DNA from: a virus
IMG/VR virus record: IMGVR_UViG_3300021963_000055
Span: 40,878-104,877 of that record
Length of the DNA: 64,000 nt
Strand: one strand, 5' to 3'
The position numbers were made by a program, and so were the translations under genes. Positions 6,328 to 49,083 of this stretch are shown here, piece by piece (positions within the stretch are counted from its first letter, which is position 1; each line of letters opens with the position of its first letter). Under the pieces are notes generated by a model, which saw nothing but the letters and a program-made list of their open reading frames with translations, did not search any database and was not told the origin of the DNA.

Positions 6328-8613
6328 TTACTGAGTTAGTTCGCTAAATGAAACGCCAGTTCTCGTGGCTATAAAAGTGATGGTGATGTAATTAATACTT
6401 CTAGCAGGTTTAATGTAAATCTCAGCATTAAATTCATTTCTATCAATTACATCTGCACTATTATTGGTTTCATCACATATTACAAGGAAATCGTAAATTC
6501 CTCTTCTTCCTTGTACTCCTCTAAGATAAGGCTCAACAGCAGCTTTGAAAGAACTTCTAGTTATTTCATCATTAATTTCAAATAATTGGAATTTGGAGAA
6601 TGTAGCAACATTCTTTTCAAGTTCAATGAAGAGTCTGCGAACATTAATTCTGCTAAAAGCACTAGGGGAAGATAACGCAGTTTTATCACCAAATAAAACA
6701 ATTCCTTGCCCTGGGAAAGAAACAATAGGATTAATTCTATTTGTATAAAGTCTATCTCTTTCACTTTGTTTTGGTGAGTATGCAAGTTTAGTTGCATTTT
6801 TTAAGTTTCCTCTATTGTAACCTGCTGGAGAGAACCAAGTTTCAGAATTAATAGTGGTACTAATGCAAAGACCCGCAACATCAGCAGCACAAGGGACATA
6901 ACGATAGGTATCATTAAATTTATCATAAATGTATTTGTATCCAGAATCAAAAATTGCAAATGAACTACTTGCTAGACCACTGAAAAAATCAATTATAGCT
7001 TCAGTTTTTATTGAACTAGCTGAACTATTAATAACGTCACTTCTTCTTGGAGAAATTACTGCCATGCAATCTTTTCTTGAAGATGCAATATCAATAAGTT
7101 TGGAAGCTCTCTCTACGCTAATTTTTCCAGGAATTAAAAAGTCGATATCATTAAATCCTTCAGAATCTCTTAAAAGTTCATACGCATTGGTGGTTGCAGA
7201 TTCAATATCTGCAAGATCAGTAGTAAATTCATAATCTTTACCGCCACTTAAGCTAAATCCAAGTGTAGGTGAATAGTTGATAGATGAAATTAATGAATAT
7301 AATTTATTTGCACTATTTGTTTCTCCAATAGATGCAGTTGAATTTGCAGGACCTTCTAAGTTAATTTTTGAATTGCCAATAAAATCTAAACCAGCTCCAA
7401 ATCCTGGGAAAATATATTTGGATTTCTCTGCAATTGCTGAGTGAAAATAAACAAGAGAACCATCTAATGTACTTGCATCTTTTGCTTTAGAAACAAATAA
7501 ATATTTTTCTAAAATTGTGTTTGGGACGCCAGTAATAACGCCATCTTCATCTAAAACCAAAATGTGCATTTCATCAAATTTACCGCCTTTACTGGCAACT
7601 GAAGATGAAGTTCCTGGTTGTGGTGCTACTTCTCTCCACTTAAGACCAGAAGCATACTCAAGAGAATCATAATATGTATTATCTACTGAAATAATATCTC
7701 CAGCAGCAATTAAGGTTGTTGGGGTATCAGCATTATCAGTGATGCTATAATTATTAAATGCAGAACTTGGAACTCTTTCTGTGCTCTTATTTAAAACAAT
7801 ATAAAATTTATTAGTAGTAGTATCTACTTTATAAACCCATCCAGTTCCTACTTTAGTTGCTCCATTTTTGATTACAATAGCATCTCCTGGTGTGACTGTA
7901 GGATCGACAACAACTCCAGTTACTGTTAGTGTAATATTATTTGCTGGGGCAGCTCCACCGACATCAGAACCTAAAATAGTAATTGTATCATTGACAACAA
8001 AATTTTCTCCACCTGTTATAGTTACAGTATAAACATTTCCTGCAGATACTTCAACATTTAAAATTGCTCCTGTTCCAGATCCATTGGTAGTATATGCAAC
8101 ATTTGGATATGAAGCAGCACCACCAGTTGCAGTTCCAGTAGTTGTAAATGTAGTAATTTTTCCAGTTGTTGCAGCGTAATTAATTATTTGATCTGCACCG
8201 TGATCAACTGCAACCACTCTGAGTGAATTTAATTTTTCCCCTGCAGTTCTACCTGCAAACTTAAATGCTGTACCATTATAGTTATCAAAATCAAATTTAC
8301 TCTTAATAGTAAAATTTGATAATCCAGTATCAGAAGATGAATTTAAAGTGATATTTGAACCACTTGGTCTAATTACTGCAGCAATTCCGCCATATTCGAT
8401 AATAGTTGATGCGGCAAACCAAGATTCATAATTATAATCATTTGGTCTGCCAAATGTATCTACTAATTCTCTTTCGCTAGAAATAAAAGTTACTGTATCT
8501 ACAGGACCAGTTTCTGCAGCGATTACGACTGCACCAACGTTCTGATCAGATACATTAACTATTGGAGTTAAATCAATTTCTTTAATGGATACTCCAGGTG
8601 AAGCAAACGCCAT
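6328..8613 (-). CDS. gp18: Tail sheath protein
   Basis: Motifs SPGVSIKEIDLT, WFSPAGYNRG, RINVRRLF, IKPARSINYI; tandem ATAAATA at 8648-8658. Confidence 0.97.
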   Translation of the reverse strand: MAFASPGVSIKEIDLTPIVNVSDQNVGAVVIAAETGPVDTVTFISSERELVDTFGRPNDYNYESWFAASTIIEYGGIAAVIRPSGSNITLNSSSDTGLSNFTIKSKFDFDNYNGTAFKFAGRTAGEKLNSLRVVAVDHGADQIINYAATTGKITTFTTTGTATGGAASYPNVAYTTNGSGTGAILNVEVSAGNVYTVTITGGENFVVNDTITILGSDVGGAAPANNITLTVTGVVVDPTVTPGDAIVIKNGATKVGTGWVYKVDTTTNKFYIVLNKSTERVPSSAFNNYSITDNADTPTTLIAAGDIISVDNTYYDSLEYASGLKWREVAPQPGTSSSVASKGGKFDEMHILVLDEDGVITGVPNTILEKYLFVSKAKDASTLDGSLVYFHSAIAEKSKYIFPGFGAGLDFIGNSKINLEGPANSTASIGETNSANKLYSLISSINYSPTLGFSLSGGKDYEFTTDLADIESATTNAYELLRDSEGFNDIDFLIPGKISVERASKLIDIASSRKDCMAVISPRRSDVINSSASSIKTEAIIDFFSGLASSSFAIFDSGYKYIYDKFNDTYRYVPCAADVAGLCISTTINSETWFSPAGYNRGNLKNATKLAYSPKQSERDRLYTNRINPIVSFPGQGIVLFGDKTALSSPSAFSRINVRRLFIELEKNVATFSKFQLFEINDEITRSSFKAAVEPYLRGVQGRRGIYDFLVICDETNNSADVIDRNEFNAEIYIKPARSINYITITFIATRTGVSFSELTQ

Positions 8614-41935: not shown

Positions 41936-42140
41936 GATATTTTGGAAATTTTTTTTTATTTAAATCACTATATCTAGGTCGATCTAGGAATGGTATAGCT
42001 TAGGGTAGTTAAGGCTTTTTGTACGGGTACGGGGGGCGGCGACCCATAAGGGCCGCTTATACTGCCCCTGCCCACTGATAAGCACTGCTGATGGATCAGA
42101 TCTGCTGATGGGTGGGGGAGGCTGGCTCCCCCTCTGCTTA

Positions 42141-42308
42141 TCAGTCCCAGAGCAGGTTGGCGATGGCTTCCAGTCGCTGCTGGCGGGTGGCCAGCTCGGC
42201 TTCGATGGCCTCGGCTTCCTGTTCGGTAGGGTTGCCCTCATCGAGCCATTCCATCAGCTGGAAGCTGCTCAGGTCGTCGAAAGCGGTGGCGATGGTTGCG
42301 TCGAGCAT
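42141..42308 (-). CDS. Small acidic early protein (55 aa, not in the ORF track)
   Basis: MLDATIATAFDDLSSFQLMEWLDEGNPTEQEAEAIEAELATRQQRLEAIANLLWD; GGAG RBS, own promoter, hairpin at 42114-42132. Confidence 0.7.
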   Translation of the reverse strand: MLDATIATAFDDLSSFQLMEWLDEGNPTEQEAEAIEAELATRQQRLEAIANLLWD

Positions 42309-42334
42309 GGTTGGCTCCGTTGGTTTGCTTGATC

Positions 42335-42389
42335 AGTCTACCATGGATGGGGCCAGCTTGTGGCCAGCCCCGTTACAAAGGTTTACACA
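42335..42389 (-). promoter_or_regulatory. Early promoter with HLR1-like (RpaB) direct repeat
   Basis: -10 TAGACT at 42340-42335; GTTACAAA-GG-TTTACACA at 42372-42389; no TTGACA. Confidence 0.65.
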
Positions 42390-42697
42390 GGGCTGGGGCG
42401 ATCCTGGCTCCAGCGAACTAGCCTGCGGTTGCTGGCCTTGCTGTAGACTCGGTTGCCAATGGTTCGGCCATCGGCCAGCGTGATCACGCTGCGGCCAGCG
42501 GCGTCAGCAGCAGCCTGCAGAGCCTGGCGTCCCAGCTTGCGCTCCTCCTTGAGAGCAGTCTCACTGGTGGCCAGATCAAACAGCCACTGTGCCCGATGGC
42601 GGCCAACGATGACGCCATGGCGGATGGTGACCTTGGCAACAGCAACAGCCACTGCGGTGGGGATGCTGGTGCGGGTGAGGCGGTCAGAGCGGGTCAT
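42383..42697 (-). CDS. Hypothetical basic early protein
   Basis: ORF preceded by a TATAAT promoter at 42746-42741. Confidence 0.6.
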   Translation of the reverse strand: MTRSDRLTRTSIPTAVAVAVAKVTIRHGVIVGRHRAQWLFDLATSETALKEERKLGRQALQAAADAAGRSVITLADGRTIGNRVYSKASNRRLVRWSQDRPSPV

Positions 42698-42740
42698 GGT
42701 CTCAGGTGGTTGTGGGGGCTTCTCTCGCCCCCGTGTTCAA

Positions 42741-42803
42741 ATTATAGGGCATGGGTGGGGGCTGTCGATGCCCCAGACCCGAACTGTTACAAACCGAAAT
42801 AAT
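42741..42803 (-). promoter_or_regulatory. Early promoter with a degenerate HLR1-like repeat
   Basis: TCGACA-N16-TATAAT; GTTACAAA-CC-GAAATAAT at 42786-42803. Confidence 0.55.
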
Positions 42804-43561
42804 TATACTTTAGCGGCCAGAATAGCCTGGCGTTCCTTCCTGTAACCGCTGAACTTACCAGCACGGCGGCGAGCATGGACAGCTTTGCCATAGGTTGAAC
42901 CTTTAGGCTGTGTTGAGTGTACCAACAGTGCAAACGGTTTGTCACCAAAACAGTGCGAGTCGTCGTGATCAACCTCTAGCCCAATCGCTTCAGCTTCTTC
43001 ATCGTTATGCACAACTTTACTGTAGCGAGTGAACACACCTGCGTCGATATAGTGGTCGAATTTGCCACCATAACTTGCCGTCATGAAGAAGTTAGAGGGC
43101 AACTCCAAACCTACAAACAGTGGCAGGTTTTTGCTGTAGCAGTAGAACTTGAGATCAGGGTTCAGCTTTGCCACTGTGATCCAGGCATCCAGATAGGCAC
43201 CCGAGAAGAAATCACCAGACTCGTGAATCCTGACGAGTTTGCTATTCTTCTTGCGAGCATTCTGCAGGCTGTTGTTGATCAGTTCGGCTGCAGTGTTGGT
43301 TTGGATCGCCTCAACAACCAGCTGCAGATTGCGAGCCCGAGCATAGAAAGGGCCATCGTATTGTGCTTCACTAGTTGCAGCAAAACACCTAAATTGTGTT
43401 TGAGGGCCATCCTGAACTTTACGCTTGCCGTCTTCATTAACAACAGCAAACGAGAGACAGAATAGAGCGCCAGGGCAGGTTTTGCCAGCTGGCAGGCTAA
43501 AGATCAGGGTGCCCTTACCGAGCTTGGCGTTACCGTGGCTGAAGGTCAGAAGGTCAGACAT
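42803..43561 (-). CDS. GP88-like Cys-rich protein
   Basis: Motifs GNAKL, FSLPAGKTCPGA..C, CFA, RIHESGDF, FYCYSK. Confidence 0.75.
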   Translation of the reverse strand: MSDLLTFSHGNAKLGKGTLIFSLPAGKTCPGALFCLSFAVVNEDGKRKVQDGPQTQFRCFAATSEAQYDGPFYARARNLQLVVEAIQTNTAAELINNSLQNARKKNSKLVRIHESGDFFSGAYLDAWITVAKLNPDLKFYCYSKNLPLFVGLELPSNFFMTASYGGKFDHYIDAGVFTRYSKVVHNDEEAEAIGLEVDHDDSHCFGDKPFALLVHSTQPKGSTYGKAVHARRRAGKFSGYRKERQAILAAKV

Positions 43562-43587
43562 TGGTGGTTTGGGTGTGAACTGAGGTT

Positions 43588-43642
43588 AGTCTACCAGATG
43601 GGAAGGGCCAGGCTGGCTGGCCCTGTTGCAAAGCTTAATGCT
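43588..43642 (-). promoter_or_regulatory. Early promoter with HLR1-like repeat
   Basis: -10 TAGACT at 43593-43588; GTTGCAAA-GC-TTAATGCT starts at 43625 (32-nt offset). Confidence 0.55.
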
Positions 43643-43880
43643 GTGTCACCCAGTGGTCCATGGTCATGATCCAACCCTCACCGTGCCACGTATGGAAGCG
43701 ATCGGTTTTGAACTGCTCCCACTGGGCTTTGGTGATCAGATGGCCCTCAACCCATACCAGGGTCTGATCCTGCTCCCGCTCAGCTTGCTTGGCCCCAGCC
43801 CGCACCCGAAACATTTCGGCTGCAATGGTTCCCTGGCTGGCGTCAGGGCCGATTCCTGGGAGGTGCTCGGTGTTCAGCAT
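43635..43880 (-). CDS. Hypothetical early protein
   Basis: Start re-placed at MLNTEHL, downstream of the promoter at 43904-43909. Confidence 0.6.
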   Translation of the reverse strand: MLNTEHLPGIGPDASQGTIAAEMFRVRAGAKQAEREQDQTLVWVEGHLITKAQWEQFKTDRFHTWHGEGWIMTMDHWVTQH

Positions 43881-43903
43881 TGGTCCTTTGCGACTGCTCA
43901 CGA

Positions 43904-43958
43904 ATCCTACACCATCGGGTGAGCCCTGAAGCCCACCCCTGTAACAGAATGAAATAAT
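43904..43958 (-). promoter_or_regulatory. Early promoter with HLR1-like repeat
   Basis: -10 TAGGAT at 43909-43904; GTAACAGA-AT-GAAATAAT starts at 43941 (32-nt offset). Confidence 0.55.
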
Positions 43959-44152
43959 TACATTTCCAGCTCCCAGTTCTGATCTTTGTGCATATCAACC
44001 CAGAAAATCTCTTCAGGGTCAGCTATACTTGCCAGCAACATTCTGCCATCCATGTGTCGTAGGATGGTGCAATGCTCGCAGCGTTTGAGTGCATTAGCGA
44101 ACCTGTTTTTGGCTTTCTTGCTGATAGGTTTGACTGAAATGATCTGTGCCAT
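43958..44152 (-). CDS. Conserved small cyanophage protein
   Basis: VKPISKKAKNRFAN...FWVD..KD.NW. Confidence 0.7.
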   Translation of the reverse strand: MAQIISVKPISKKAKNRFANALKRCEHCTILRHMDGRMLLASIADPEEIFWVDMHKDQNWELEM

Positions 44153-44276: not shown

Positions 44277-44540
44277 TCAGATCGCTTTCAGTTCTTCAGT
44301 CTTGCGAGCATCTGCGATAGTGGAACCGATGCTTACATTCTTCAGGATCTCATCATTGTTGAGCAGATCACTGAGGAATTGAATGTAACTATCTGATGCA
44401 ATAAAGTTGTAAACTTTATCAGGATTGCTGTGATAAGTTATAAAAACATCATTGCTATCTAGGGGCATAGTGATAGATTGAATGGCGCTAGATTGCTCTT
44501 TAGTGAATTGACGATGGATGGGGGAGATTGCAACGGTCAT
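44277..44540 (-). CDS. KTSC-like small protein
   Basis: SSAIQSI...VFITYHS...VYNF...SIGS pattern; followed by a G6/C6 hairpin at 44249-44267. Confidence 0.55.
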   Translation of the reverse strand: MTVAISPIHRQFTKEQSSAIQSITMPLDSNDVFITYHSNPDKVYNFIASDSYIQFLSDLLNNDEILKNVSIGSTIADARKTEELKAI

Positions 44541-44566: not shown

Positions 44567-44621
44567 AATTTACAGGTTGGGGGCTGAGGTGTCAACCCCC
44601 TGATTGATTAGTAATACTAAT
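44567..44621 (-). promoter_or_regulatory. Sigma70 promoter with LysR/RbcR-type box
   Basis: TTGACA-N17-TAAATT; ATTAG-TAATA-CTAAT at 44607-44621. Confidence 0.75.
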
Positions 44622-44752
44622 CAGAACTCAATTTCGTCTAGAGTTGGCTCTGTAATAGTATCATCAGAGCCTGCAATCATGTCGAGAATGGTGAGAATTT
44701 CATCACCAGTCTGACCTTTCCGAAGCATCGAAACAAGTACCTCTTTAGACAT
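44621..44752 (-). CDS. Small hypothetical protein (43 aa)
   Basis: MSKEVLVSMLRKGQTGDEILTILDMIAGSDDTITEPTLDEIEF. Confidence 0.6.
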   Translation of the reverse strand: MSKEVLVSMLRKGQTGDEILTILDMIAGSDDTITEPTLDEIEF

Positions 44753-44760
44753 AATAATTC

Positions 44761-44898
44761 TCAGTAATCGTAATTAGAGTTAATAAATTGATGAAAGTTT
44801 AGTTCGCTTTCATCATCATCAGCTGCAGGAATCAGCATATCATCCTGCCAATCGTAAATCTCAGCTTCAAGATCTACGAAATCAAACGTAGTTTCCAT
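44761..44898 (-). CDS. Very acidic small protein (45 aa)
   Basis: METTFDFVDLEAEIYDWQDDMLIPAADDDESELNFHQFINSNYDY; has its own promoter. Confidence 0.6.
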   Translation of the reverse strand: METTFDFVDLEAEIYDWQDDMLIPAADDDESELNFHQFINSNYDY

Positions 44899-44922
44899 TG
44901 GTTCAGTGAAGTGAACGATTCA

Positions 44923-44977
44923 AGTATGACCTGGATTGTCTGGGATGTCAACCCTTTGAGCCATAAGCATTGCTAAT
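44923..44977 (-). promoter_or_regulatory. Sigma70 promoter with LysR/RbcR-type box
   Basis: TTGACA-N17-CATACT; ATAAG-N5-CTAAT at 44963-44977. Confidence 0.72.
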
Positions 44978-45128
44978 CTGACTGATTAGCTTTGATAAAG
45001 TTTTCTAATGTGTCCAGTTCAGTTTCATTTAAGCCTAACACATATTCTTCAATGATTTGCTCCATTAGAACATATTCATTGCTGTAAAGTTGTTCTTTAA
45101 GAGCATCAATCATCTCATCTTGTTTCAT
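44973..45128 (-). CDS. Small acidic hypothetical protein
   Basis: Start re-placed at MKQDEM because a promoter lies inside the longer ORF call. Confidence 0.6.
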   Translation of the reverse strand: MKQDEMIDALKEQLYSNEYVLMEQIIEEYVLGLNETELDTLENFIKANQSD

Positions 45129-45158
45129 TGATTTGGAATGAAAGAACTGTACCACGTC

Positions 45159-45213
45159 AGAATAGTTGATTGTGTGCATGATGTCAAGTAGGTGAATGAT
45201 AAGGATTACTTAT
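45159..45213 (-). promoter_or_regulatory. Sigma70 promoter with LysR/RbcR-type box
   Basis: TTGACA-N17-TATTCT; ATAAG-N5-CTTAT at 45199-45213. Confidence 0.72.
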
Positions 45214-45376
45214 TAATAACTAATGCACCATATTTGTTTAATTTACCTGCACACGGTTTGTTATCATATAGCCCAAAGTAATACTTACCAATACTAATAC
45301 CAAATTGTTCGTCACCTTGCTTAGCCTTGGTGTTAGCACCAATGTAGAAGATTCGGGAGTCAAGTGAGAATTTCAT
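45206..45376 (-). CDS. Small hypothetical protein (56 aa)
   Basis: MKFSLDSRIFYIGANTKAKQGDEQFGISIGKYYFGLY...; has its own promoter. Confidence 0.55.
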   Translation of the reverse strand: MKFSLDSRIFYIGANTKAKQGDEQFGISIGKYYFGLYDNKPCAGKLNKYGALVINK

Positions 45377-45400
45377 GGTTGTTCATGTGTGAACATAGTC

Positions 45401-45454
45401 ACTATAGAGGTTTCTCAGAGGGTTGTCAAGGGTTCTTTGATTAGTGTATCTTAT
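45401..45454 (-). promoter_or_regulatory. Sigma70 promoter with LysR/RbcR-type box
   Basis: TTGACA-N17-TATAGT; ATTAG-N5-CTTAT at 45440-45454. Confidence 0.75.
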
Positions 45455-45509
45455 ATGGTTAATAATTTCTAAGTATACTTAATAATAAGTTCTGAACCCT
45501 GACATGGTT

Positions 45510-45563
45510 ATTCTAGCAGGTTTTGGGTGTGTTGTCAAGTGTATATTGATAATAATTTCTGAT
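45510..45563 (-). promoter_or_regulatory. Sigma70 promoter with a degenerate LysR box
   Basis: TTGACA-N17-TAGAAT; ATAAT-N5-CTGAT at 45549-45563. Confidence 0.68.
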
Positions 45564-45640
45564 CGGTGGCCTCCGAGTGATTTGGAATGCTTATATTAGT
45601 AATACTTATCGGTGGCCTCGGAGTGATTTGGAATCCTTAT
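45549..45640. repeat. Tandem 46-nt duplication with a near-identical 33-nt core
   Basis: ATCGGTGGCCTC(C/G)GAGTGATTTGGAAT(G/C)CTTAT at 45562-45594 and 45608-45640. Confidence 0.9.
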
Positions 45641-45661
45641 GAGTTTTTTGGGCCTGGGGGC

Positions 45662-45690
45662 TTGACAAAATGGCCGAGTGATGATATAAT
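45662..45690 (+). promoter_or_regulatory. Perfect-consensus sigma70 promoter on the non-coding strand
   Basis: TTGACA-N17-TATAAT. Confidence 0.8.
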
Positions 45691-45759
45691 GCTCGCCAAG
45701 ACTGCTGCACCCCCGCACATTTCAGATACTTTCTCTGACACACTCGGACACATACAGTA

Positions 45760-45875
45760 TATACTTAATAATTTCACACATATACCCTATACACTTAATA
45801 ATTTCTCTCTTTCAGTCTCTCTCTATACAACACAAACATATATTTTTTATTACATTTATTATATACTTAATAATT
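45760..45875. repeat. AT-rich TA(T/C)ACTTAATAAT repeats
   Basis: Copies start at 45760, 45790 and 45862, with another at 45474. Confidence 0.8.
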
Positions 45876-46443
45876 ACACAAAAAACGACTGATTGTTTAC
45901 ATATACCTGCGGACTATACATTACATAAACTAACTTTAGATTCTTTTGGAAGTCTGTTTCATAGTGAGATCTCTTATGACGATCAATCACTATATTAGTA
46001 TTCTTTACAAAGAATCCATCTTCTCTTATTGGTACATATTGTGCATCTACTTCCCAGATCATTACTCTCTGATGTGTAAGTAATACATGATAATATAAAT
46101 CAATTTTCTCTGTTGATAGATTCTGTTGTGTATTCTGGAATGTTAGCTGGAATCTATCTTTAATCTCACCATCTGTATTGGTGGTATCCTGGCGGAGTAC
46201 AACTTTTTTGATTTGTGCATTGAGCCAGATCTTAGGTTGTTTCTCTACAAGTAAATCTACACCTGTATCTACTTTTGGTTCTGCTACATTGATTTGATTC
46301 ATGGTAAGATAGCCCATGACGAAGCTTTGGCACGAGATACCTGAATAGTTTGGATCCGCCAGGATAACCTTCTCTTCTTGCAATAAAGGAGGCATTGTTG
46401 GTGGTATAAAGCTGGGTGCGATCAGATCAGTTACTTTATTCAT
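45874..46443 (-). CDS. PD-(D/E)XK-like nuclease
   Basis: PKVDTGVDLLVE...NAQIKK and IDLY pattern. Confidence 0.55.
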   Translation of the reverse strand: MNKVTDLIAPSFIPPTMPPLLQEEKVILADPNYSGISCQSFVMGYLTMNQINVAEPKVDTGVDLLVEKQPKIWLNAQIKKVVLRQDTTNTDGEIKDRFQLTFQNTQQNLSTEKIDLYYHVLLTHQRVMIWEVDAQYVPIREDGFFVKNTNIVIDRHKRSHYETDFQKNLKLVYVMYSPQVYVNNQSFFV

Positions 46444-46587
46444 TATAGTGCAAAAAAGTAGTGTTTTTTGGTTGTAAATACTTGGCTTTGAGGTGATTTA
46501 GAGATTGCTTCCTGGCTTTGATTTTGGCTTTTGATTGACCTTTGGTGGTCTTTGGTTTGTTAGAGTGATGTTGCCAGTTTGGTGTGT

Positions 46588-47040
46588 TCATGGTAGTTTG
46601 ATTTCTTGCTTTGGTTGAAAGAGATTTGTGGAATAACATTTCCACTGATTCTTGCGAGTGAACAGATACACATACTCTTCACCACCTAACTTACCAGAAA
46701 CAAACTTATGAAATGTAGTATGCTGAACTTCGATTTCCTCACCACGCTCTGTATAATAGAGTGGCTGCGGAATACGATCATTCTCATACATCAAATAGCC
46801 CGCATCATCACAAATATATTCACCTTTTTCATCACGAAGAGAAGAACCAGAATTCCAGGTTTCACGAGTGCGAAGGGAAGAAATAGCTCCACCATCAATC
46901 AGATTGACGACTTGATCTCTGATGGAGTAATGTTCCTTCAGAATCTTAGCATGGTGCTCAGGATAACCATCCCAATGGCAGTACACTGAAACAACAGAGC
47001 GATCCTTGAGTTGAATGCCGATGCGTGAGCGGGTAGCCAT
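46588..47040 (-). CDS. Conserved cyanophage early protein
   Basis: MATRSRIG...SVYCHWDGYP, EEYVYLF...W. Confidence 0.8.
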   Translation of the reverse strand: MATRSRIGIQLKDRSVVSVYCHWDGYPEHHAKILKEHYSIRDQVVNLIDGGAISSLRTRETWNSGSSLRDEKGEYICDDAGYLMYENDRIPQPLYYTERGEEIEVQHTTFHKFVSGKLGGEEYVYLFTRKNQWKCYSTNLFQPKQEIKLP

Positions 47041-47062
47041 TGGAGTGGTTTGAACTGTGTTC

Positions 47063-47120
47063 AGTATAGAGGTGGAATCAGCCCTGAGGACTGGGCTGTG
47101 TGCCAGCTTGAGAACTGGCC
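47063..47120 (-). promoter_or_regulatory. Early promoter with a GTGCCAG...CTGGCC dyad
   Basis: -10 TATACT at 47068-47063; dyad starts at 47100; GC hairpin in place of a -35. Confidence 0.6.
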
Positions 47121-47202
47121 TTGGATGTCTTGCTGTAGGTATGGAGTGAACCGAAGATCTTTACAGTCTTTGGCTTGGGATTGTTGTGATAAGGTTTGTT
47201 GC

Positions 47203-47469
47203 TCATAGTGATTGTACTTCTTCTAGAATGTTGTTAATGTCTTGTTCATCACGATGACCTAATACATCATCAGTGATTGGTGTATCATAGGTGATTTCCC
47301 AATTATCTTGGGTTCCTTTGAGAATGGCTACTTCATACAGATCATCTTCAAAACCATAACTACCAGGAAAACGAACTACAGATACACCATAACCATTAGG
47401 AAAGAAATGTGTAGCTTGTACACCATCTTGAATCTTGTGTTTTTCAAACTTTAGATCAGTGAAGTTCAT
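47203..47469 (-). CDS. Conserved phage hypothetical protein
   Basis: FPNGYGVSVV..GSYG...LYEVAIL...YDTPITDDVLGH. Confidence 0.75.
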   Translation of the reverse strand: MNFTDLKFEKHKIQDGVQATHFFPNGYGVSVVRFPGSYGFEDDLYEVAILKGTQDNWEITYDTPITDDVLGHRDEQDINNILEEVQSL

Positions 47470-47624
47470 TGACAATGATGATGAGTTGGGTTTTTGGTGC
47501 AAAATAGTTTGTGAACTGCTCTGTATTCAGTATCAATCAGTTTACCATTGTCACGAAGAATAGCAAGTGTATTCCATCCAACAATGATACCAATTCCACA
47601 GATGATAACTGGTAGGCACTTCAT
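47466..47624 (-). CDS. Small membrane-anchored protein (52 aa)
   Basis: MKCLPVIICGIGIIVGWNTLAIL...; ATGA overlaps on both sides. Confidence 0.6.
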   Translation of the reverse strand: MKCLPVIICGIGIIVGWNTLAILRDNGKLIDTEYRAVHKLFCTKNPTHHHCQ

Positions 47625-47806
47625 GCGTTGTATCCTTCCGCTTTCAAAATAGCACGACGAGCTTCATATGCTTGAAACTGAGTAGCAAATTCAGCAATCT
47701 TTTGAAATGAATGCCGACGATACAATCCCCATCGAGTTGTACCATAAATTTGGCAAATTTGATAAGGATTGTCGATACCGAGAGGATAGGGTTTCATGGT
47801 AGTCAC
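47621..47806 (-). CDS. Hypothetical protein
   Basis: ORF in a coupled gene chain. Confidence 0.6.
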   Translation of the reverse strand: MTTMKPYPLGIDNPYQICQIYGTTRWGLYRRHSFQKIAEFATQFQAYEARRAILKAEGYNA

Positions 47807-47964
47807 ACCGAAAGAGAAACTTCAATTTGTTTGATGTTAAGTCCACAAAGTTGTTCATGGACACGTTTGCAAATCAAATCTGTTGCAGACTTTGCTTTAG
47901 ACTTTTCATACCAGATGGTACAAAGACCATCATAGGTTTCAACACGAACTTTGTAGTTTTTCAT
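47803..47964 (-). CDS. Hypothetical protein (53 aa)
   Basis: MKNYKVRVETYDGLCTIWYEKSK...; fills the gap in the chain. Confidence 0.6.
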   Translation of the reverse strand: MKNYKVRVETYDGLCTIWYEKSKAKSATDLICKRVHEQLCGLNIKQIEVSLSV

Positions 47965-47966
47965 GT

Positions 47967-48236
47967 TCAGTCAGGAAGAATACAGAATGAAGCACAGAAC
48001 TGTCGAACCCATTCTAGTGTGGCACGGTAGCCTCTGGGATTCGACATCACCATACTAGCACCTTTTCGGGGATTGTGGGCGATGGCAACATACTTGTAAA
48101 CATCAGGGGATTCTTCAATCTCTTCAATCCACATCTGGTTCACGTCACCATCTTGCCAATCCCAGCGACTGGTGGTGTAATGGTACACTTCACGGAATCG
48201 TGGTTTGACTGGTGTGAGTGTGATGATGTCGTTCAT
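47967..48236 (-). CDS. Hypothetical protein
   Basis: ORF in a coupled gene chain. Confidence 0.65.
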   Translation of the reverse strand: MNDIITLTPVKPRFREVYHYTTSRWDWQDGDVNQMWIEEIEESPDVYKYVAIAHNPRKGASMVMSNPRGYRATLEWVRQFCASFCILPD

Positions 48237-48237
48237 T

Positions 48238-48513
48238 TCAAACAGTCTCCTGATAGATTTTCATACCCTTACGGAGACGGATTGTATCATCAATCATTTC
48301 ACCAACCTGTTCGTAAATGTAGGAAGAACCTCCTACATCACAGAGAACATCTTCAGTGAGTTCTTTAGAGAAACGCACTTCGTCGCAGTTTTCACCAACG
48401 ATCTCAAATACATCATCTTGAGTGAATACAAACGCAGCACAACCTGCGTTCTCACCTTGACGCTCAATCATTTGGTTGATTGAGTCACGAAGTTCAGAAA
48501 GTGTGCGGTACAT
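48238..48513 (-). CDS. Hypothetical protein
   Basis: MYRTLSELRDSINQMIERQGE; own promoter upstream. Confidence 0.7.
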   Translation of the reverse strand: MYRTLSELRDSINQMIERQGENAGCAAFVFTQDDVFEIVGENCDEVRFSKELTEDVLCDVGGSSYIYEQVGEMIDDTIRLRKGMKIYQETV

Positions 48514-48539
48514 GGGTTGGTTCCCTTGACTACCTCAGT

Positions 48540-48593
48540 AGGTTAACCGATCTGCGGGGGCATGTCAACCTTTGATTCATTAGCCTTCTTAAT
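48540..48593 (-). promoter_or_regulatory. Sigma70 promoter with LysR/RbcR-type box
   Basis: TTGACA-N17-TAACCT; ATTAG-N5-TTAAT at 48579-48593. Confidence 0.65.
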
Positions 48594-49083
48594 ACGTGCG
48601 GAACGTTTCCGCATTTCATACTGATGGTTCCGTGTGAAAGCATAAAGAATCACAACAAGTGCTCCAGCTAGTCCAGCAACAGCTGCGATAGCATTGACTT
48701 CAACAGGGAATGTAGTGGTTTCAATCATTGAGAATACCTTCAAGATGGTCAAGACAGAGTGTAACATAGGTTTGATCTTCTTCGATCAGTTCACGATACT
48801 CTGCATAGAGAGCATCAGCAATTCTGAAGTTCTTGTGCATTGTTTTGTAGGTCTTAGCCTTTACTGCACGATTATTGAACTTCTCCATTCTCTCCATAGC
48901 ATTTGCATGTGAGAGATAGATTGAATAATCAGCTTCGTCCATTATGGTTGGGATCTCCTTTACCTTCAAGTGATTTTGCAAGAAGTTCTGCATACTTCTC
49001 AAGATATGCTGTATCATAGGCTGCTAGATGGTTCTTTGTCAATTCTTTGTGCATGTTGTTGAGGTTAATCCAATCTTCTGTGT

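Follow-up and report, generated by a model that had tools for sequence, protein, structure and literature searches.

The DNA analysed in this study (the window) is a stretch of 64,000 nucleotides (nt) that forms the final 64 kb of a 104,877-bp viral contig, IMG/VR record IMGVR_UViG_3300021963_000055. The contig has 35% GC and is approximately 57% complete. Its closest named relatives are DSL-LC03, S-SRM01, and S-CREM1, which are T4-like Synechococcus myoviruses (Kyanoviridae), and the source virus is a T4-like cyanomyovirus (Kyanoviridae) of freshwater picocyanobacteria. Among uncultured relatives, G001 is complete (172 kb), and its psbA gene is closest to psbA of freshwater picocyanobacteria (e.g., Synechococcus UW140, Cyanobium, and RCC307). 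The minus strand holds nearly all genes, and the region from 44 to 50 kb is a series of small genes of unknown function, as is typical for the early region of T4-type phages. Several sigma70-type promoters in this region carry a 15-bp interrupted dyad, in its strict form ATWAG-N5-CTWAT, upstream of the -35 box. Promoters and genes are on the minus strand, so that TTGACA reads TGTCAA on the plus strand. A preliminary description of this DNA listed six of these promoters:

P1, 44567..44621, minus strand: dyad ATTAG-N5-CTAAT at 44607-44621, 11-nt gap, -35 box TTGACA at 44590-44595, 17-nt spacer, -10 box TAAATT at 44567-44572
P2, 44923..44977, minus strand: dyad ATTAG-N5-CTTAT at 44963-44977, 11-nt gap, -35 box at 44946-44951, -10 box CATACT at 44923-44928
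P3, 45159..45213, minus strand: dyad ATAAG-N5-CTTAT at 45199-45213, 11-nt gap, -35 box at 45182-45187, -10 box TATTCT at 45159-45164
P4, 45401..45454, minus strand: dyad ATAAG-N5-CTAAT at 45440-45454, 10-nt gap, -35 box at 45424-45429, -10 box TATAGT at 45401-45406
P5, 45510..45563, minus strand: degenerate dyad ATCAG-N5-ATTAT at 45549-45563, 10-nt gap, -35 box at 45533-45538, -10 box TAGAAT at 45510-45515
P6 (doubtful), 48540..48593, minus strand: dyad ATTAA-N5-CTAAT at 48579-48593, 10-nt gap, -35 box TTGACA at 48563-48568, -10 box TAACCT

All six sites share one layout, in which a gap of 10 or 11 nt separates the 15-bp dyad from TTGACA and a 17-nt spacer leads from there to the -10 box. The preliminary description had placed all six correctly and with 17-nt spacers throughout. 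Its distances of 12, 12, 12, 11, 11, and 11 nt from the -35 edge hold as coordinate offsets, and they equal 11, 11, 11, 10, 10, and 10 intervening nt. Four of its six dyads proved to be strict (starting at 44607, 44963, 45199, and 45440, with -35 edges at 44595, 44951, 45187, and 45429), while those at 45549 (-35 edge 45538) and 48579 (-35 edge 48568) are degenerate. In P5, one arm is ATTAT instead of strict CTWAT. The P6 dyad lies inside an open reading frame (ORF; 48543-48767), the -10 box matches at three of six positions, and the promoter scan did not call this promoter. The strict-dyad promoters are the top-scoring promoters of the region in that scan, and a T-N11-A core (T2, A14) is present at every strict site. 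Other consensus promoters of the genome are without the dyad, indicating that it marks a subset of promoters. Exact composites in the window comprise three of dyad-N11-TTGACA and one of dyad-N10-TTGACA, and there were none in 100 dinucleotide-preserving shuffles. The dyad alone occurs 12 times in the window, compared to 6.2 expected.

Conservation in the dyad is confined to particular positions. Bases are retained at all ten positions of the arms and vary freely at the five positions between them. Each of G5 and C11 is present in approximately 92% of 53 phage sites, and the dyad has symmetry. There is no covariation between positions 3 and 13 (the W positions); ATTAG..CTTAT and ATAAG..CTAAT both occur, and mixed forms are common. 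Where orthologous promoters have diverged among G000, G001, and G004, the arms, the -35 box, and the -10 box are retained, and the flanks are not. P1 orthologues in G001 and G004 retain all three parts, the P3 footprint has diverged flanks around retained arms, -35, and -10 in the same two genomes, and the site orthologous to the degenerate P5 dyad is a strict ATTAG-N5-CTAAT in both. This pattern fits two protein half-sites one helical turn apart, rather than a hairpin. A hairpin reading of the dyad was ruled out by the non-covarying positions 3 and 13 and by folding, which was no better than in shuffles for four of the five promoters P1 to P5 (P2 among them). P1 is the only one that folds better than shuffles, and it has a G5/C5 hairpin around its -35 box (RNA fold -23.6 kcal/mol, z = -5.5). 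The sites also do not have the character of UP elements (A/T tracts from -40 to -60, no conserved G or C, and no dyad symmetry).

The carboxysome/RuBisCO (csoS1-cbbLS) operon of picocyanobacteria, in which csoS1 is the first gene, carries the same element. In all five genomes from the probable host clade, a dyad with at most one mismatch lies at the same place upstream of csoS1. When the search was widened to 33 Cyanobiaceae genomes, from Prochlorococcus to Cyanobium, AT-N-AG-N5-CTTAT was present 123-129 nt before the csoS1 start in 32. The distance from this host dyad to the TTGAC(G/T) box downstream of it is 43 nt in 30 of these 32 genomes (42 and 38 nt in the other two), and the dyad centre is at approximately -86. 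Its arms are invariant and its spacers vary, and the flank preference G-dyad-CA is common to host and phage sites. Host loci L207-L243 also have a second conserved element (GGTGAT or GGTAAT) approximately 18-24 nt downstream of the csoS1 dyad, together with a poor -10 region (GCATTG-like). These features would be consistent with a promoter that depends on an activator and has a second LysR site.

The LysR-type regulator RbcR of Synechocystis recognizes the experimentally derived motif ATTA(G/A)-N5-(C/T)TAAT (Bolay et al., 2022, as cited in a review, PMC13249358). The preliminary description had given the same motif, and the review confirms it. According to the review, RbcR activates from approximately 90 nt upstream of the start site and represses from approximately -10 (PMC13249358). 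In the Synechocystis family, ATTAG-N5-(T/C)TAAT was found upstream of rbcL in 19 of 28 genomes, which agrees with the published motif. The phage element resembles the RbcR/CbbR LysR operator in being a 15-bp interrupted dyad in which arms and spacer measure 5 bp each and the core is T-N11-A. The P1 and 48579 dyads match the Synechocystis motif exactly, and the other phage sites differ from it at positions 3 and 13, as do the csoS1 boxes of the host family. Unlike the RbcR operator, the phage element is viral and precedes promoters that have a consensus -35 box and serve small genes whose function is unknown. In a preprint on Prochlorococcus MED4, RbcR regulation of cso genes is inferred and no RbcR motif is reported upstream of them. 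As a by-product, our comparison predicts that AT-N-AG-N5-CTTAT, located 43 bp before the -35 box of csoS1, is the RbcR box of Prochlorococcus, Synechococcus, and Cyanobium.

LysR-type proteins can be recognized by their helix-turn-helix (HTH) domain, PF00126, and five of the five picocyanobacterial genomes checked have one such gene each. We followed the LysR gene of RCC307, which is annotated as a RuBisCO operon transcriptional regulator. Its product is 70% identical to a protein of Synechocystis salina (34-36% for the other LysR paralogs there), and the S. salina protein clusters with the probable RuBisCO transcriptional regulator of PCC 6803. The RCC307 and Synechocystis proteins are nearly the same over the first 60 residues and have identical recognition helices. 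In the absence of an NCBIfam model specific to RbcR, orthology was set by names and identity; judged in this way, the RCC307 regulator is the orthologue of Synechocystis RbcR. No dyad was found in the 480 nt upstream of rbcR in five picocyanobacteria, and autoregulation of rbcR through the dyad was rejected for this reason.

The preliminary description had reported that no LysR gene is present in the window and had called for a search of the rest of the genome for a LysR or other HTH gene. Its statement is borne out on a larger scale, as PF00126 was detected neither in the genome fragment of 105 kb nor in G001, which is complete at 172 kb. Likewise, no DNA-binding or HTH family was found among the small promoter-proximal early proteins. 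The phage dyad is the csoS1 element, and each checked host genome has a sole LysR regulator, indicating that the dyad matches the predicted operator of that regulator. The proposed identity of the dyad as an RbcR/LysR-type box is thus upheld by its near-invariance upstream of the csoS1 operon (32/33), the sole LysR gene in five genomes, and the orthology of the copy that was followed. As a prediction from these comparisons, it is well supported.

Scanning IMG/VR with the composite pattern gave mostly single matches, which were taken as chance. Several contigs have many copies, always with the same geometry, and they form four groups, which puts the module in at least four uncultured cyanophage lineages. 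Close relatives of the source phage (G001, G004, and L058) make up one group. Another is lineage B (G002), with at least 13 nearly identical cassettes and no phage family assigned to it; the remaining two are Mic1-like siphovirus contigs (G003, L005, L016, and L099) and a B3-like T4-type contig (L117). Dyads outnumber those of a reversed-pattern control in G002 (15 vs. 1), G003 (9 vs. 0), and G004 (9 vs. 0). Early proteins are not detectably related between these groups, and blastp detected no similarity of those in the other groups to those of the source phage. The occurrence of one module in unrelated cyanobacterial phages points to a host factor.

Cultured cyanophages without dyad enrichment include Syn9 (0 dyads), S-CRM01 (0), Bellamy (0), S-PM2 (2), B3 (3), and P-TIM68 (2), with 0-3 in controls. 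DSL-LC03, S-CREM1, and S-SRM01 have few copies only. The cultured Microcystis phage Mic1 has six strict dyads (0 in the control) beside a different repeated motif. At 8057-8093, 16349, and 21690 of Mic1 (L272), tandem dyads 22 bp apart lie upstream of TTTCAA..CACATCTG..TAT instead of TTGACA. TTAAT arms are confined to the Mic1-like lineage, and hosts of that kind carry ATTAG-N5-TTAAT upstream of rbcL. The transcriptome papers on Ma-LMM01 and Mic1 do not describe the upstream dyad.

Promoter-early stem-loop (PeSL) cassettes are repeated intergenic modules of T4-like phages (Arbiol et al., 2010, PMC2839356; Comeau et al., 2014, PMC4122927). The phage module is similarly compact, with the stop codon of the upstream gene, the dyad, 10-11 bp that are often G-rich, TTGACA, 17 bp, and the -10 box in this order. 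Upstream-gene stop codons are inside or beside the dyad at P1-P3, and the left arm of the P2 dyad contains the TAG stop. Further likenesses to PeSLs are the repetition among small ORFans, the upstream stop in an AT-rich stretch, the near-consensus TTGACA-N17 promoter, the G-run/C-run stem-loop around the -35 box of P1, and the gain and loss of neighbouring genes. Unlike in PeSLs, the AT-rich stretch of the phage module is a specific dyad with a conserved G and C that match the host operator. Most copies are also without a stable stem-loop (P1 is the only one of P1-P5 to have one), while stem-loops are common in lineage B. PeSL-like behaviour of the cassette would account for the spread of the module, both inside a genome and from one genome to another. 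The identity of ten specific positions with those of the host operator is left unexplained by it.

Host transcription-factor sites have a precedent in cyanophages. Sullivan et al. in 2010 and Zeng and Chisholm in 2012 reportedly found NtcA and PhoB boxes in T4-like cyanophages. As in those promoters, a lytic cyanophage here sets a putative host transcription-factor site before its own genes. In contrast to them, the putative regulator is RbcR, which belongs to carbon fixation, and the site recurs in one fixed arrangement across many early promoters instead of accompanying individual auxiliary metabolic genes. Our literature search found no paper linking RbcR with cyanophage promoters.

Cyanophages redirect host carbon metabolism, and cyanophage infections depend on light. 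To our knowledge, T4-like cyanophages are without the MotA/AsiA switch of T4. The coupling of cyanophage early transcription to host physiology is poorly understood. On balance, we favor the explanation that the phage dyads represent RbcR boxes of the host that have become part of PeSL-like cassettes with early promoters, and RbcR is predicted to bind them. A dimer of host RbcR winged-helix domains would bind the dyads, centred near -54, and they would share a face of the helix with the host site, which is at approximately -86. The phage box is 32 bp (three turns) closer than the host box. Dyad gaps of 10-11 nt, 22 nt (genome 32527), 43 nt (host), and 52 nt (plus-strand promoter at 45662) differ by roughly whole helical turns, which fits a protein that must face RNA polymerase. 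Binding of RbcR would link a subset of early promoters to the host carbon-fixation regulator, and if this is true, a host RbcR box at a fixed position in many early promoters is a direct link from viral expression to the carboxysome/RuBisCO regulator.

The most likely effect would be stimulation or gating of early transcription by the carbon and photosynthetic state of the host. Repression in some conditions would rank next, followed by RbcR sequestration, in which the many dyad copies on replicating phage DNA may draw RbcR off the host operon. The preliminary description had proposed that the host regulator drives these small genes or that the clustered boxes titrate RbcR away from host carbon-fixation promoters; either role would be conjectural. 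A wider proposal, which we advance tentatively, is that several unrelated freshwater cyanophage lineages (T4-like myoviruses and Mic1-like siphoviruses) may each have built an RbcR operator into their early promoters. Early transcription would then be gated by carbon fixation, and RbcR sequestration could help to shut down host CO2 fixation.

Several observations weigh against RbcR boxes as the explanation. LysR-type regulators usually have a recognition site near -65 (approximately -90 for RbcR activation) and a second site near -35 to -45. This placement was not found at the main phage sites, where the dyad is centred near -54, compared to -86 in the host and approximately -90 (activating) or -10 (repressing) in Synechocystis. 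No second, activation-type LysR site was recognized between the dyad and the -10 box. A LysR tetramer reaching downstream from -54 would cover the -35 box, and promoters with so perfect a -35 box should not depend on an activator. Like the AT-rich part of PeSLs, the dyad is rich in A and T and often bears a stop codon, and cassette recombination could homogenize it. Host genomes have no genome-wide enrichment of the dyad. Many cyanophages whose hosts have the same regulator are without the box; hosts of the unenriched cultured phages belong to the same picocyanobacterial family, indicating that early transcription in cyanophages does not depend on the box.

The dyad may instead have no dedicated binding protein at all and may be the AT-rich, stop-bearing part of a PeSL-type mobile cassette, possibly with an UP-like contact to the alpha subunit, that recombination keeps uniform. 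The architecture is that of published PeSLs (sigma70 promoter, AT-rich stop region, polyG/polyC stem-loop around the -35 box, and small ORFans), P1 has the expected hairpin, a variant lacking precisely the gene at 48238-48513 exists, and the dyad sits at the position of the distal UP subsite. Conservation is confined to the ten arm positions, G and C included, while spacer and flanks vary. The module is also common to unrelated phage families, and homogenization within a phage cannot explain why the dyad is fixed in hosts at a different distance from the -35 box. We consider this explanation rather unlikely. Another alternative is that a dimeric DNA-binding protein, encoded by the phage or delivered with the virion, uses the dyad as its operator, perhaps to turn off early promoters, with the host likeness arising by mimicry or coincidence. 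The module-bearing lineages are without detectable common early proteins, no HTH family was found among promoter-proximal genes, the motif is identical to a host element whose position is conserved in its own right, and binding between -47 and -61 would leave RNA polymerase unobstructed. Even though phages commonly repeat an operator at a set position in their early promoters, functions are known for only a minority of the early proteins here, and the genome fragment is just 57% complete, such an operator appears unlikely.

The link between RbcR and the csoS1 dyad in picocyanobacteria rests on motif likeness and orthology, and a different host regulator might bind both the csoS1 dyad and the phage dyads. 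The T-N11-A signature of LysR operators, the match to the Synechocystis RbcR motif, the single LysR gene in each of five host genomes, and a recognition helix identical to that of Synechocystis RbcR make this quite improbable. Chance pairing of AT-rich palindromes with -35 boxes has a negligible probability. In its favor are the AT-richness of the genome (35% GC) and the weakness of two among the six sites listed; four exact composites against none in 100 shuffles, conservation in relatives, and recurrence in other lineages argue strongly that the pairing is real.

The genes downstream of the promoters are short. P1 drives an 87-amino-acid (aa) gene (44277-44540), P2 a 45-aa gene (44761-44898) and a 43-aa gene (44621-44752), P3 a gene of approximately 52 aa (44973-45131), and P4 a 56-aa gene (45206-45376). 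There is no ORF between P5 and P4. The P5 transcript start (window 45480-45509, minus strand) has a leader of approximately 25 nt directly after the -10 box that is AACCATGTCAGGGTTCAGAAC-like. The same leader follows the -10 box of strong promoters at genome 38325 (plus strand) and 8500 (minus strand), and it appears to be a repeated leader. A 91-aa gene (48238-48513; phrog_1255) lies downstream of P6. In three metagenomes, its depth is 10-20 times that of its neighbours, and a contig in one public run joins 48236 to 48518, giving a variant precisely without this gene. These observations suggest that it behaves as a widely shared, cassette-like gene.

Public reads contain the region without differences in three DNA runs. 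The sole RNA-library run gave short contigs of relatives that are 90-95% alike and carry neither transcript starts nor strand, and it has no bearing on expression. An Rfam scan of 40-52 kb gave no credible family. The window also has a GC-rich island at 42000-44000 (55.6% GC, compared to 35% for the genome), which encodes a 252-aa Pfam GP88 protein (42803-43561). A strict dyad at 42046 is inside this island, with no adjoining -35 box.

Additional dyads were identified beyond the six listed promoters. One of them, which the preliminary description does not list, lies next to P5 and faces a promoter on the opposite strand:

Extra strict dyad, 45595..45609, no strand assigned: 46 bp centre to centre from the P5 dyad
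Divergent promoter, 45662..45690, plus strand: TTGACA-N17-TATAAT with a TG extension, 12 of 12 matches

The extra dyad is 52 nt upstream of the divergent promoter, with its centre near -95, and this distance is conserved in G001 and G004. No ORF follows the promoter, and a transcribed region of approximately 90 nt is conserved in the same two genomes. After it (within window 45590-45960) there are two to four tandem units of approximately 34 nt ending in GGTTAATAATT. The region could be a small RNA or an iteron/origin-like array.

Two more dyads lie outside the window. The one at genome 34720 has an 11-nt gap and is upstream of a 714-aa gene without a Pfam family, and the one at genome 32527 has a 22-nt gap and is upstream of a cobS-like AAA+ gene (AAA_5/CbbQ_C ATPase). 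Genes of both promoters (genome 31357-34668; L274) adjoin gp46/gp47-like and gp55-like genes. Both sites are kept in the complete relative G001.

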